Origin: Emiliania huxleyi CCMP1516
Lineage: Eukaryota
Assembly: GCF_000372725.1 (NCBI RefSeq)
Contig: NW_005201318.1
Location: 51,190 to 86,281, forward strand
DNA length: 35,092 nucleotides
Direction: 5' to 3'
The translations under genes and the position numbers were made by a program. The notes under the pieces were generated by a model that was given only the letters and a program-made list of their open reading frames with translations, ran no database searches and had not been told where the DNA came from. This document shows, piece by piece, positions 2,805 through 27,908 of the stretch. Each line of letters begins with the position of its first letter. Position 1 is the stretch's first letter.

Positions 2805-3697
2805 CCACCACAGGGACTGTCTGGCGCGGGAGGGGAGATCTAAGCCGAACTCGCCGGGCACGCCGGCGAGGTGACGGTAGATCACCTCTTGAGGATCACC
2901 TCCGCCAGACGATCCCTCCCGACGGGGACCGGTCTTGGGCCATTCCAACGGCCAGGCCGCTCGCTTAAGGCTGATTGGCTAGACGAGCGGCCTACCTCCA
3001 ACGGGGCGGTCCGGGAACGCGTGGAACCTGCCCACCTCGGTGGGAGGTGGTTTGGCGCCGACGGACCGCCCTCTCCACCACCCTCGCCCAGGGATCTACA
3101 ACGCTGTCTTAAGGTCCGACAGGTTCGGCACCGGGCACCGCCTCGGTATACAAAATGCGCCTGCGGGCGGACCCTCACAGATCACAGATCACTAACAGAG
3201 TAGAAGGATCTGACCTCGGGGCCGATGTGACCAAGAATTGGTAGCGTGGTTTTACCTCACACCCATGGTCTCACAGTGTGCCGGCAGTCGCCGAGCAGTG
3301 TCGCTCACACAAGCCACAGCACAAGTGACTGAGGGCCAGTGAGGGCGAGCCCATCGCTGTCACAGCTGTGGTAGCCGCACAGTAGGCTGTGTCAACTGTG
3401 CAGAGCGTGTGAGCAGCCGAGGAGCTGCTCTCCAGGCTTCAGGCGCAAAGAGCTGCATGCCACCGAAAGCGCTGTCGAGGTTCGCCGAGCGCGGCGCAGG
3501 TTGGAGGACACCGTCACCGACGAGCGCGTTGGAGTATTCACTCCGGACAAAGCCGGCCACACGCACACGAGCTGCGGCCGTGTGGCCGTCATAGTGGCGA
3601 GGCGCGGGACTCTATGTGTGCGGCCCGCGGTGCGCGCATCAGAAATGGCCTTTTTCCCGTGCTCAACACACTATAAGAATATCGCGAGCAAACCCTC

Positions 3698-5304
3698 TCA
3701 CTGCCCCAGCCCCCTCTCCCCGAATCGCTCGATCTTCTTGGGCAGCAGCTGGTGCGACAGGTCCTCTCCGTGGCCCCAAGGCAGCCGCGTTCGCCCAGAC
3801 CCCAAGCATAAACACCGCCGTCGGCGGCGATGGCGAAGCTATTGTATTCCGCAGCCGACACAGCGACGACGCGCTGCCCAGCGAAGGCTTCGACCTGCTT
3901 GGGCAGCAGCTGGTTCTGCTGGTCGCCGTGGCCCAGCTGGCCAGAGGCTCCATAGCCCAGCTCCAGACGGCGCCGTCGGCGGTGATGGCGATGCTGTGGC
4001 GATCTCCCGCCGACACAGCGACGACGCGCCGGCCAGCAAAGGTCTCGACCTTCTTGGGCAGCAGCTGGTTCTGCGTGTCGCCGTGGCCCAACCTGCCAGA
4101 GACTCCATCGCCCCAGCTCAAGACAGCGCCATCGGCGGTGATGGCGAGGCTGTGGATGCCTCCAGCCGCAACAGCGACGACGCGCCGCCCAGCAAAGGCC
4201 TCGACCCTTTTGGGCAGCAGCTGGCGCTGCTGGTCGCCGTGGCCCAGCCGGCCAGCGCCTCCAAGGCCCCAGCTCCAAGCGGCGCCATCGGCCGTGGTGG
4301 CGAGGCTATGGCGGGCTCCAGCCGACACAGCGACGACGCGCTGCCCAGCGAAGGCCTCGACCTGCTTGGGCAGCAGCTGGTCCTGCTGGTCGCCGTGGCC
4401 CAGCCGGCCGTAGTCTCCATCGCCCCAGCTCCAGGCGCTGCCGTCAGCAGTGATGGCGATGCTGTGGTACAGCCCAACCGACACAGCGACGACGCGCCGG
4501 CCAGCAAAGGTCTCGATCTTCTTGGGCAGCAGCTGGTCCTGCTCGTCGCCGTGGCCCAACTGGCCAGAGAATCCACCGCCCCAGCTCCACACAGATCCGT
4601 CGGCGGTGAGGGCGAGGCTGTGGTATGCTCCAGCCGCCACGCTCACGGCGCGCTCGTCACCCAGCATTGACGGGAGGCGGGTCGGCGTGTTGAGCTGCGT
4701 CACGCCCTCGCCGTGGCCGAGAAGGCCTGGAAATTCCTCGTCGTCGTCATCCTCCTCCTCCTCGCCCTCCCTTGCCGCTGACCCGCACGACGAGAGCCGC
4801 CCCTCGCCGTCGATGAAGACGCTGTGCCGTTCGCCTGCTGACACCCTCGCCGGCGCGTTGGACTCGCGCAGCAGCGCCGAACAGCACAGCCACCGCACGG
4901 CGCAGCCCTCGCCCTCTGGCTGCGCCGGCAGCTCGAAGCCGCGCTCTTGCGCCCACAAGCGGATGCCCTCCTCCGCAAGCGAGGCGTGGAAGAGTAGCGA
5001 GACGGCCGCGACGCGAGCGATGTCGGCGGGGTCGCAGCGGGAGAGGGCGCGCTCGAGGAGCTCCCTGGGAAGGTCGAGCAGGCGGGCGGGCGGCGGCGTG
5101 TCTGGCGAGGGAGCGGCGGTGGGGGCGGAGGCGAGGCGGCGCGAGCGGCGGCGCGGCGGCTGGCGAGTAGAGGCCCCGCCCACCCAGGGTACCCCTCTCG
5201 AGGGACCCATTGGGTTCTTTCGAGGGCTCGCCGGGGCTCTGCTCCAAGAGACCTCGAGAGAGCGTGCGTGTGCCTCTACTCGCCAGGCGCGGCGGGGTGG
5301 ACAT
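3698..5304 (-). CDS. F-box-like + RCC1-repeat protein. Proposed start ATG 5304 with intron 5283-5160; two apparent frameshifts near the 3' end (~3957, ~3775), so a pseudogene or sequencing errors
   Basis: LLDLPRELLERALSRCDPADIARVAAVS is F-box-like. It is followed by repeated VSAG.HS.A.TADG.VWSWG.G..G.LGHGD...QLLPK.VE.F units. Correcting indels in two G-runs gives ...CLGHGEDLSHQLLPKKIERFGERGLGQ* ending at 3698. Confidence 0.85.
5160..5286. mobile_element. 127-bp MITE with 15-bp perfect TIRs and 9-bp TSD; candidate introner
   Basis: TIRs ctggcgagtagaggc (5160-5174) and gcctctactcgccag (5272-5286). Flanking direct repeat gcgcggcgg at 5151-5159 and 5287-5295. Confidence 0.85.
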
Positions 5305-5437
5305 CGCGAAGAAAAGAATTTTACGCTGGCCTCGAGGACTGGGCACGGGACGCACGCACGCACGCTTATCTGTGACTACTCCATCTAGCCTGGGGGGGCG
5401 CAGGAGGGCTCAGGAGGGGCAGAAGGGGTAAGATGTG

Positions 5438-5629
5438 CAGTCGCGCTCCCAAATACGTGCATCACTTTGTGACGGTGTTACAACTTTGAGGGCGCCCAGT
5501 TGATTGCGCCTACTTTCATGAGCGTCGACATGGTAGTTATCGAGATATGGTTGATCAAAAAAGTTGTAACACCGTCACAAAAGTGATATGCACACAGCAC
5601 ACGAGACACGAATATTGGGAGCGCGACTC
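5438..5629. mobile_element. ~190-bp MITE with Tc1/mariner-like ends
   Basis: Outer IR agtcgcgctcccaa / ttgggagcgcgact and inner IR tttgtgacggtgttacaacttt / aaagttgtaacaccgtcacaaa. Ends tg|cagtc and gactc|ta each differ by one base from TA|CAGTC...GACTG|TA. Confidence 0.75.
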
Positions 5630-5786
5630 TATCGTATGCGGGGTGAGGCCAGCTAGTCGACACAGGTAACCTGGTCCTTGGATCGTGGATGCTGGAACCT
5701 GCCCAACTCAAAAGTTTTCTCTCTTTAACGAAGGACATAAATTTCTCAGTTAAAATACGAGCTCGAACCGCGAGACGGGGGGGGCG

Positions 5787-11787: not shown

Positions 11788-12092
11788 GGCGCAAGAAGCC
11801 GCGAGAACAAGGGACCGGCAGGCGGCGGCGGCGTCGCAGAACGAGGCAGAGGAGAGCGACGCGACAGAGGAAGAAGCGACAAGAGAGAGAACGACGTCAG
11901 TGGGACGACCGCGAGGTGGTATGAAGGTTGCAGCGAGAATCGGCGAGAGACTGCGAAGAGAGATAGGAAGAGGCGAACGCCCAAGGGTGGGCGACGGCTA
12001 GCGCATCACACCCCTCTCCTTAAAATCCCTGTGTGGTGGCGGCGTGCCGTCCTCCCATCCCTCCCTTGGCGTGTCCGTTTTCTTTCTTTTTC
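11788..12092 (+). repeat. Repeat family B, long copy (left arm of an inverted pair)
   Basis: Reverse-complement match to ~12428-12729, including cgcgagaacaagggaccggcaggcggcgg...gggtgggcgacggctagcgcatcacacccctctccttaaaatccctgtgtggtggcggcgtgccgtcctc. Confidence 0.9.
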
Positions 12093-12177
12093 TGTCGTGT
12101 GCGGTGTGGGTGAACCCTGCCCAGCCCCCCTCCGTGTCGCGAACTCGCGATGCGCTCCCAACTCCCGTTCGCTGTGT

Positions 12178-12238
12178 CCGAGAGAGATTTTTAGCAATAC
12201 CAAACAAATCTAACACTCACACGTCATTTGGGGCCTGG
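12178..12238 (-). repeat. Dispersed repeat family A2, copy 1 (matches 32301-32363)
   Basis: ccgagagagatttttagcaataccaaacaa.tctaacactcacacgtcatttggggcctgg in both places. Confidence 0.9.
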
Positions 12239-12427
12239 TTTGTTTGTTGCTGTGTCCGTGATCGTCCTTCTCTGCGGACGGGCCCCTCCCTCCACCCTTC
12301 ACGTACGGGATCATGAGGCCGAAGAAGTGGTTCTATGTATAAATAGCCCCGCTCGCAGGGCGTGCAGCACGAAGGAGGGTTCTTGTTTTATACGGTTTTC
12401 GCGCAGAATTCTTTTCCAGTGCTTTAA

Positions 12428-12729
12428 AAAGAAAGAAAGAAAACACGCAGCCCAAGGGAGGGATGAGGACGGCACGCCGCCACCACACAGGGATTTTAAG
12501 GAGAGGGGTGTGATGCGCTAGCCGTCGCCCACCCTAGGGAGTCTGCCTCTTCCTATCTCTCTTCGCAGTCTCTCGCCGCTTCTCGCTGCAACCTTCATGC
12601 CACCTCGCGGCCGTCCCACTCTCGTCGTTCTCTCCCTTGTCATTTCCTCCTCTGTCGCGTCGTTCTCTTCTGCCTCGTCCTGCGACGCCGCCGCCTGCCG
12701 GTCCCTTGTTCTCGCGCCTTCTTTCGCCA
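12428..12729 (-). repeat. Repeat family B, long copy (right arm of the inverted pair)
   Basis: Diverged reverse complement of 11788-12092, with an (AAAG)n run at its left end. Confidence 0.9.
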
Positions 12730-18585: not shown

Positions 18586-21411
18586 ATGCAAGGCCTCCGC
18601 GAGCTTGAGTCGCTCCAACAGCGACCCGTCAGCAGCGCCGACGAGCAGCCGCCAGCCAAGCGCGCGCGGCCGGGCAGCGGAAAGGCGGCGCTCGAAGCGG
18701 CAGAACTCCTCGCACGCGCTGAGCGGGAGTTGGAGGAGTCGCAGGTCGAGGTCGCCGCGGTGGACGAGAACGGGATGAAGGCGATGGTGCTGGCGGTCGA
18801 GCGGCGGATCAACGACAATATGGCGCTGCGCATGAAGTACCCAGACCGCCCCGAGAAATTCATGGACTCGGAACTCGAGCTGTTTTCGCATCTCAAGCGG
18901 CTGCACGTGCTCGCGACGGCGCCTGAGCTCTTCCCGACGTTCGTGCGGACCAAGTGCGTCTCCTCGCTGCTCGGCTTGCTGATGCACGAGAACTCGGACA
19001 TCTCAATCGACGTCGTCGATCTGCTGCACGAAATGGCAGACGCCGATGGCGCCGACCCAGACGACGTCAAGGCGCTGGCCGACGCGCTGGTCGAGCACGG
19101 TGCGCCGGCTGCGCTGATGGAGCACCTGAAGCGGCTGGACGAGGCGGTGGACGAGGAGAGCCGCGCCGTGCACCAGTCGCTCGGCATCTTCGAGGCGCTG
19201 CTCGAGGCCAGCCCGGAGCTGTCAGCGCCACTGGCACGTGACGCGGGGCTGATGTCGTGGCTGCTTGGCCGGATCAAGCTGCGCCCCTTCCACGCAAACA
19301 AGCTATATGCGACGGAGCTGCTGGCCGTGCTGCTGCAGCAGAACGCGCCCAACCAGGCCCTGTTCGGCGAAGAAGGCGGCGTGCTCGCGCTGCTCACCGC
19401 TACCTCGTACTACAAGAGGCGCGAGCCGCAGGCGCGCGCGCCTCGAAGCTGAATGGGTATTCCTGTACTCCAACCAGCACTCGAGAGAACGCGCACTCAG
19501 CTGTACTCGACCGTATTCCCGCGGTGCTCATTGCACTCGAAGCCCGTGTCTGCACGCGGTGCTCTGAATACACACTGCCCGATGCCGTCTTCACGCAAAG
19601 ACACAACCCCGGGCCCACGACGCACAAGCACAGACAGTCGAGAACCGGGAGAGACAGCGACGACAGTCAGAAGTCGGCACTGGGTCCCAGCCAGGAAGGC
19701 GAATGCGATGGCGGCCGTCTCCTCACCCCGACGGCCGGCGTCTTCTCGCGGCAGGCCCTTGAGGAGGCTGAGCTGGTCGAGAACATGTATGACTGCCTCT
19801 GCAGCGCGCTGCACGCGCCCGCCAACCAGACGCTCTTCCTCAAGGCGGAGGGCATCGAGCTGATGATCCTCACGCTCAAGGAGCGCCGCTTCGCCGCGCA
19901 GGTGTGCAGAGACGCTGCCCGCACTCACAGCCACACACCTCGCCCGCACCTCGCCCGCACCTCTGACACGCCGGCGAGCGCCAGCAGCTCCTGTTCACAG
20001 CGACGATGTGTGAAGGACGCTGCCCGCACCCACAGCCTCTCGCACACCCCTCGCCACGGCCCCGCACACACACGCTGCCACCCCCCCCCCCCCCGGCTTT
20101 TCTTCCTCCCCCCCCTGGGCCTTTCCTCCTTTCCTTTCCTCCTTTCCTCCTTTCCTCCTTTCCTCCCCGGGGGCGGGGGAGCGCCAGCAGCTCCTTGGGG
20201 GAAAGGGTTTGCAAAGCCCCCCCCCCCCCCCCCCTCCCCTCCCTCCCCTCGCCCCACAGGGCGCACTGCGCGCACTCTCGGCAAGCCTCGCGCGCAACGG
20301 CGCCAACTGCGAGCGCTTCGTCGACATCCGAGGGTTCAAGACGCTCTTCCCCCTCGTCGGCGCCGCGCCGCCGCCGCCGCCCGCCTTTGCGAAGAGCAGC
20401 GAGGAGAAGCGCACCGCGCAGCTAGCGCACGACGAGCACTGCGCCTCGCTGCTGGTCACTCTGCTGCACCAGCTGACCGGCGAGCGGCGGCGGAGGCACA
20501 ACGCCACTTCCCCCCCCGCTTCTATTGCGCGAGCAGGGCTCACCGCCGTCGCGGAGAGGCCTAGTACCATACCTCCAGAGTACCGAATCCCGTGTGGGTT
20601 CAGTCCCGTGGGTGGTGTGGTAGGCTGCTGGGCAAGCTTGCGGAGGGAGACTGCGAGAAGCTGGAGCGGCTGCTGCGCCTACACTTTTCCTACACCGAGA
20701 GGGTCGAGCTGGCGGCAGAGGCGGCGCTCGCCGTCAGCGAGGTTGGCCGCGGCGGCGAGGAGGAGGGGGGCCCTAGAAGCGGAGTATCTCCTCATATCTC
20801 CCCGTATCTCCCCGTATCTCCCCATATCTCCCCCTATCTCGGGCCCTAGAAGCGGAATACTACGCATTTTTGTATTCGAACGAGCGCTCGAGGGGACACG
20901 GAAACCGCCGTATTCGGCCAGAACCCGCGGTCTTCACTGTGTTCGTAGCCGCTCGTATTCGCGCGGTGCTCTGAATCCTCTGCGCAGTACCGCATTCCCG
21001 CCCTGAGGTTGGCGTACTCACACTTAGGACGAGGACGAGCTGGACGACGCTCTCTACCTCGCGAGGACGGGCGCCGGCTTGCGGACGCTGCAGCTGGTCG
21101 ACACGGCGCTGTGCTACGTGGCGGGGTCGCGCGCCAAGCCGCTGCTGGGGCGGCTGCTCCACGGCTTGTACGAGGGCGGCGCATCCCTCCACAGCGTCTG
21201 GGGAAACGCCGACGAGCACCTCAAGACTTGCGACGGCGGCGACGAGCCGCTGCCGGACGCGGCTGAGCAGCGGTCGGTGAGCGAGATGGGCGAGGCCGTG
21301 CGCGCGCTACTGTCGAGGTACAAGTCCGCCGACGACGCGGAGGGCGAGGGCGGAGACGACCGGGGCGAGGGTTCGGCCGACGCCGCGGCCAGCAGCGCCG
21401 GGCCAGAATGA
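18586..21411 (+). CDS. CTNNBL1: Beta-catenin-like protein 1 (Prp19/CDC5L complex); exons 18586-19431, 19755-19901, 20260-20495, 20624-20741, 21028-21411
   Basis: Family motifs N..LRMKYPDRPEKFMDSELEL, LLGLLMHENSDISIDVVDLLHEM, NKLYATELLAVLLQ, ELVENMYDCLCS, FLKAEGIELM, NCERFVDIRGFKTLFP, EKLERLLRLH and LYLAR..AGL.TLQ. All four introns are phase-consistent (two GC-AG, two GT-AG). Confidence 0.93.
20769..20856 (+). repeat. Intronic 10-11-nt tandem repeat (tatctcccc.) bracketed by a 16-bp direct repeat gggccctagaagcgga
   Basis: tatctcctca tatctccccg tatctccccg tatctcccca tatctccccc tatctc in CTNNBL1 intron 4. Confidence 0.85.
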
Positions 21412-27388: not shown

Positions 27389-27887
27389 GCACCCGAGGGT
27401 TTTACCAAGCTGCCAACCCTATTCACGCACTGTGCGCAAAAGACCCCACCAACCAACCAACTGTTGCCGGGCCCGAGTGCGCGAAGTGCGGGACCAGCCA
27501 ACCAGCCTCCTGGGCCGGCCAGGGTCCTGCCAGGGTCGCCCACGGGTCAAAAATTTCTTCGCTCCGCGTATTCAACACGTAGGACATCAAAATGGGTCAA
27601 AATGGGCTATTTCACGCCTCTTCAGGCTCCCAGATCCATCTTCTCACCACTGTCCATCCTGAAATTGCGTCACGAGGGTCACAGTGGCCTGTTAGACGCG
27701 CTGGGGTGCCAGGGGAAGGAGCCGTTACGACCGTTACGGCGTGGCCGACCGTTACGCGAGTGCGCGAAGTGCGGGACCAACCAACCAACATCTGGAGGCC
27801 TGGAGTGCGCAGAGTGGGGGACCACCCAACCAACCCAGGGCCCGGAGTGGGTGAATAGGGTTGGCAGCTTGGTAAAACCCTCGGGTG
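27389..27887. mobile_element. ~500-bp MITE with 37-bp perfect TIRs and a 3-bp (CAG) TSD
   Basis: cag|cacccgagggttttaccaagctgccaaccctattcac ... gtgaatagggttggcagcttggtaaaaccctcgggtg|cag. Internal direct repeats gagtgcgcgaagtgcgggacca.ccaacc. Confidence 0.9.
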
Positions 27888-27908
27888 CAGACGGAGAGCG
27901 ATGTAGCG

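Follow-up and report, generated by a model that had tools for sequence, protein, structure and literature searches.

The window analysed here, a stretch of 35,092 nucleotides of Emiliania huxleyi CCMP1516, carries on its minus strand a gene for an F-box/RCC1-repeat protein belonging to a large family, and codons 6 and 7 of this gene are separated by a short inverted-repeat element. The features of the locus are the following:

3713..5304, minus strand: host gene, coding for an F-box/RCC1-repeat protein from a large family, 3' end approximate (from homologues and Pfam)
5302..5304, minus strand: start codon of the F-box/RCC1 gene (from homologue comparison)
5160..5286, no strand assigned: MITE of subfamily A, without transposase, 127 bp (from structure and family comparison)
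5160..5174, plus strand: terminal inverted repeat, which on the minus (coding) strand finishes with CAG at 5162-5160, the predicted acceptor
5272..5286, minus strand: terminal inverted repeat; read on the coding strand, it gives CTG followed at 5283 by the predicted GC donor
5151..5159, no strand assigned: target-site duplication, 9 bp, 3' copy in coding sense
5287..5295, no strand assigned: target-site duplication, 9 bp, 5' copy in coding sense
5160..5283, minus strand: predicted GC-AG intron, 124 nt (from sequence and frame arithmetic)
5208..5210, minus strand: in-frame ATG within the element, a possible alternative start
5309..5318, minus strand: T-tract with its start 32 nt 5' of the element, a recurrent targeting landmark of the MITE family

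The structure put forward in the original prediction was reproduced in full. The 127-bp element (5160-5286) has perfect 15-bp terminal repeats with all coordinates as predicted, and on the minus strand it stands six codons, or 18 nt, past the ATG at 5304. Among duplication lengths of 3-14 bp, 9 bp alone fits (5151-5159 = 5287-5295). Retention of the element shifts the frame, whereas removal of 5160-5283 (124 nt) gives a product in frame with an added Leu-Pro-Pro-Arg, and the ATG at 5210 is indeed in frame. A scan for inverted repeats of at least 10 nt with duplications of at least 7 nt and a span of 50-1500 found the element to be unique in the window. Other repeats are also present. At 5439-5628, some 120 nt upstream from the RCC1 T-tract, stands another MITE-like element, whose long inverted repeats are imperfect (a 14-bp outer and an inner match of about 25 bp) and for which no clear duplication was found. 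Two further long inverted repeats lie at 11788-12728 (arms of 46 and 231 nt) and 27389-27888 (arms of 43 nt), with no duplication detected.

Homologues of the host protein were compared over the 130 residues queried, using the best 120 of 180 matches. The empty-site sequence MSTPPRRRSRRL occurs in 27 homologues among the 120 listed, including P0002, which has 98% identity to the host protein over the queried residues. The empty site that the original prediction had proposed to look for in relatives is thus present, and the insertion is recent and not common to the relatives found. The occurrence of MSTPPRRRSRRL in P0002 and the other homologues also supports ATG 5304 as the probable true start of the gene. 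The spliced form of the site was absent among the 120 listed homologues, which, being empty alleles, cannot show a splice footprint. Joints that skip 136 nt, as expected for the empty site, were found over 4950-5500 in sequencing runs X10, X1 and X2, at a level of likeness that admits paralogues. The host allele bears two further frameshifts, near 3957 and near 3775, that were absent from the original prediction and may reflect decay or assembly error. A partial public gene model of CCMP1516 (P0001), identical to the window's protein over the 130 queried residues, starts directly behind the predicted acceptor, at 5159; it was discounted as support for splicing, because a transcript of the empty site would align from 5159 too. 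A fragment of another RCC1-repeat gene lies at 1883-2149 on the plus strand of the window and adjoins an N gap.

The element belongs to a family, which was sampled from metagenome contigs and assembled sequencing runs. In a metagenome scan, 40 loci had two paired 11-bp ends at a distance of 98-158 bp; five of them, with unrelated interiors and without the 9-bp duplication (L005, L009, L014, L038, L040), were dropped, as were six more that repeat another locus's site. This leaves 29 distinct sites, or 30 with the window. Of the 35 family loci, 34 were drawn from two assemblies; as these have six sites in common, the loci may sample one population. The multi-copy, non-autonomous family with terminal inverted repeats that had been postulated from one copy therefore exists, with two main subfamilies, A (the window type, 16 sites) and B (13 sites), and L008 unclassified. 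Copies measure 98-148 bp and have perfect inverted repeats of 11-22 bp beginning CTG; the outer 11-13 bp are common to all, and the interiors differ by many indels. The 9-bp duplication, likewise foreseen as a family trait, is perfect at 20 of the testable sites, which number 29 with the window included, and has at most one mismatch at 22 of them, while sites without it may be assembly chimeras or old copies. A 7-bp duplication with repeats longer by 1 bp fits many sites; it was rejected in favour of 9 bp because it fails at the window, L002, L012, L013, L019, L023, L025, L026, L032, L037 and L039. The target is biased to G-N7-C, its first base tending to G and its ninth to C (29/44 after symmetrising). 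Loose ends at both element ends in the culture runs X1, X2 and X10 point to further insertion sites. The family thus has the marks of a MITE: a short non-coding element with terminal inverted repeats, a duplication of constant length, dispersed copies and empty alleles. Duplicated or stuttered right ends, which suggest slippage or aberrant transposition at the repeat, were seen at L011 (1001-1178), L030 (1001-1135), L034 and L037. Isolated element-end-like sequences with unrelated interiors at L027 (1321) and L010 (829) possibly represent other families sharing the transposase.

No transposase Pfam match was obtained in the 48 window frames, and no autonomous partner with the same ends was found in the scanned viral and prokaryote collections. 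Two search patterns had 0 matches in the viral contigs, and Rfam returned two sub-threshold matches only. Two single-end matches in prokaryote genomes, without element structure, were taken as chance.

The sharp spacing of the copies to a T-tract is the main new result on this family. At 22 of the 30 sites one strand carries a 10-mer with at least seven T whose start lies 24-42 nt 5' of the element, the interval of -42 to -24 having been picked after the flanks were viewed, and at 18 sites the tract starts within -35 to -30. The background of the test in the window is 3.8%, an A-tract control gave 0/30 and nine other distance intervals gave 0-8/30. All distances from 300 nt inwards were covered by a scan in 10-nt bins, and the peak is robust to four thresholds, to dropping the window copy and to the use of duplication-bearing sites alone. 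An A-rich motif test (21/30) was set aside in favour of this positional test, its motifs having been chosen after looking. Elements lie in both orientations relative to the tract. On the tract strand, candidate ATGs are offset from the junction by -18 (window), -5 (L019), -4 (L017), +1 (L023), +12 (L039) and +55 (L015); the gene is backed by Pfam at the window, L015, L023 and L039, and at L017 and L019 the ATG lies within the duplication. At L001, L021 and L037 the visible gene begins on the opposite strand, as at divergent promoters, and the insertion of L022 is possibly just before a stop. Three of the 26 strict T-tracts of the window lie at most 30 nt before a likely ATG, including that at 5318 before ATG 5304, so that the tract is found at gene starts but elsewhere too. 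We infer that it stands at or near the transcription start. A common sequence of about 80 nt, possibly the end of another repeat supplying the tract, was observed past the A-rich tract side in the right flanks of the unrelated loci L002, L019 and L010, and one short repeat is found both in the window (3130-3200) and in the right flank of L018. With 22 of 30 sites 24-42 nt behind a T-tract, and often at or near a start codon, the family is mainly a gene-start-targeting MITE. The role first proposed for it, that of an intron-generating invader of exons, does not hold as the main one, since about three quarters of the sites lie behind the tract and 3 of 30 are well inside coding sequence.

These three coding copies (window, L010, L027), a small and biased sample, place sequence-similar elements at unrelated positions in unrelated genes, as introners do. 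The window copy is of subfamily A, reverse and in phase 0, whereas L010 and L027 are of subfamily B, forward and in phase 2. Copies in both orientations were found at transcribed-looking sites, which the original prediction had proposed to test. The host of L010 is methyltransferase-like and has an apparent frameshift near its end; its relatives numbered none in the longer-protein search and one in the representative search. The host of L027 is a TIR-domain protein; the element, whose retention would give a stop, is the only apparent break in it along the contig. A splice footprint was absent in 12 relatives covering the L027 site, all of them empty alleles that cannot show it. One coding copy in three sits in an apparently intact stretch (L027), the hosts of the window copy and L010 having other frame breaks.

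Whether the element could be spliced was assessed against native introns inferred from frame switches (L023 300-1299, window 19431-20624, L027 657-726). GC donors account for 56-61% of E. huxleyi junctions, and retention reads occur at 89% of inspected native introns (PMC4028052). The eight inferred native donors are of GC, GT or GA type; all have G at -1, six have AG, and little seems to be needed beyond G/GH. None of the eight has the RAG of GCGAGT, so that the description of the element's donor as of a type common in this window is not confirmed in its details. The inferred native acceptors are pyrimidine-rich and read AG/G in 7/7. By these rules the element ends would be recognisable as splice sites in both orientations. 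Owing to the target bias, the base next to the terminal CAG of the element is G at 41 of 60 strand-ends, but not on the coding strand of the window copy, where the duplication at 5151..5159 begins with C and gives CAG/C against the native AG/G. The proposed frame-neutral arithmetic (3 + 9 nt left) holds at all six coding-side sites tested, at each of which retention gives a stop or a shift. For a random GC-rich end, a terminal acceptor combined with a frame-neutral G/GYRAG donor has p=1.8e-4, or 7e-3 under the loose donor rule of this alga; as the pattern was selected in hindsight, these figures are no more than suggestive. In the predicted RNA fold, donor and acceptor pair with each other in a 15-bp stem (z = -2.7).

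Sequencing runs bear little on the window copy itself. Across the 17 runs listed, the share of the words of 4600-5700 that a run contains is at most 0.48. Over 4950-5500 runs X10, X12, X1 and X2 have essentially no cover at 5330-5348, which leaves the filled allele unrepresented but is no evidence against it. The 124-nt skip was absent among the 15 of 39 joints listed, in runs that lack the filled allele of the site. For L031, possibly an old copy, no contig of X1 or X10 spans the site, and X15 and X12 gave no placement. Contigs of the RNA-labelled run X10 join element ends to foreign flanks; they do not show retention, because the run may contain DNA.

We consider the window element to be a recent copy of a gene-start-targeting MITE family whose ends would likely allow removal as a GC-AG intron leaving 12 nt, an explanation that we hold with about even confidence; for useful splicing itself, predicted from the sequence of the ends, the scales are likewise level. 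Under this explanation a transposase, Mutator-like by duplication length and 5'-end bias, would mobilise the element by cut and paste. Most insertions would fall 30-35 nt past a T-tract, itself a likely mark of gene starts, guided perhaps by a bound factor or by a nucleosome or other chromatin edge whose position depends on the tract. Splicing from the predicted donor, at base 4, to the predicted acceptor, at the final base, would work in either orientation, and as 3 + 9 = 12 nt are left after splicing, the frame would survive in any phase; spliced copies in 5' leaders would lose their internal ATGs. A more specific version, which we regard as tentative and short of an even chance, is a transposon tethered to the T-tract with a complete symmetric intron in its repeats, whose gene-start insertions become introns of 5' leaders or first codons.

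A serious competitor, though one to which we give less than even weight, is an ordinary gene-start-targeting MITE without useful splicing, its splice-like ends being a by-product of the transposase binding site. Copies would then persist through their leader location, through an ATG re-created by the duplication (L017, L019), through diploid masking or in hosts that are dispensable or dead paralogues, and the window copy would knock out an already decaying RCC1 paralogue or be bypassed by restart at ATG 5210. The few coding copies, two of three of them in damaged hosts, agree with this, as does the absence of the checked coding insertions (window, L027) from all close relatives found; the predicted hairpin would hide both splice sites. 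The X10 junction contigs point the same way but are weak, as their even depth may reflect DNA and native introns themselves mostly show retention reads. Absence of the family from two introner catalogues also fits, yet those catalogues would miss it, and the double frame-neutral fit is unlikely for such an element under the strict donor rule. The opposite extreme, a general and efficient introner that seeds coding introns genome-wide independently of orientation and phase and adds four codons each time, appears improbable. The coding copies in both orientations and different phases, with arithmetic that holds at all, speak for it; the sites, however, cluster at the T-tract and not in exons, no fixed copy or protein footprint was found, and hosts are damaged.

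If the element is spliced, a culturable alga of global abundance would harbour an actively polymorphic source of new introns, intron gain would have a route that favours 5' positions, and the element's freedom of target and phase from splice-site recruitment would offer a clean control for the proto-splice-site model of phase bias. A tethered, intron-carrying transposon, if real, would be a self-neutralising promoter parasite and an intron source hidden from surveys of annotated coding introns. Without splicing the family would be a further MITE whose insertion preference is unusually sharp. In either case, the tight spacing to the T-tract suggests that insertion is targeted by some mechanism and that this haptophyte has a core motif at its gene starts.

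Among known transposons, the 9-bp duplication combined with 5'-end insertion bias is shared with Mutator/MULE elements. Termini of that group typically start G-rich and often form long repeats, whereas those of the Emiliania family are short and begin CTG; we assign the family to no superfamily. The bacterial IS4-family elements IS50/Tn5 and IS10 combine a 9-bp duplication, ends beginning CTG and a G...C target bias, a likeness that may serve as a lead only. Maize Mu likewise makes a 9-bp duplication and is strongly biased to gene 5' ends and transcription starts, but has repeats of ~215 bp and a weak SW::SW target consensus (PMC2774946), in contrast to the 13-22-bp repeats beginning CTG, the G-N7-C target and the few-nucleotide precision of spacing to the tract described here; one Dataset S2 note on Mutator/MULE gives "GG/CC termini" (PMC12130899).

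Introners catalogued in E. huxleyi comprise five families with a mean of 37 or 70 nt (PMC9860276, Table S6) or three of about 37-69 nt (PMC12130899, Dataset S2). In the portions of these catalogues available to us none is TIR-positive, has a 9-bp duplication or is marked "carry both", and by the listed features none matches our family. The 2022 survey used only annotated introns between start and stop (PMC9860276), and E. huxleyi gene models favour GT donors (PMC4028052), so that such catalogues would miss this family. No published description of it was found, Repbase, introner sequence files and parts of supplements being places that could hold a consensus, and the available portions of PMC11282704 and PMC10290126 contain nothing specific to it. 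The family is apparently new and uncatalogued, and a plausible introner by prediction.

The mechanism itself, with both splice sites carried and four codons added, is not new in kind. An introner family of Aureococcus sp. carries both sites and adds 12 bp, or four amino acids, per insertion (PMC9860276, Fig. 2F-G), and "carry both" appears 44 times in Dataset S2 of PMC12130899. The Aureococcus family (Gozashti et al., 2022) reaches its 12 bp from 4 bp of element and 8 bp of duplication, compared with 3 + 9 in Emiliania; its splicing comes from annotated introns, whereas ours is predicted (PMC9860276), and the legend of Fig. 2F-G is silent on both sites lying in inverted repeats and on both orientations. 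ILE classes of Polarella glacialis and A. anophagefferens are also TIR elements forming introns in either orientation with GC donors (bioRxiv 2020.10.14.339549). In the classes described there, the duplication mostly supplies one of the splice sites or both, so that target and phase are limited (bioRxiv 2020.10.14.339549); in the Emiliania family, by contrast, both predicted sites lie in the repeat.
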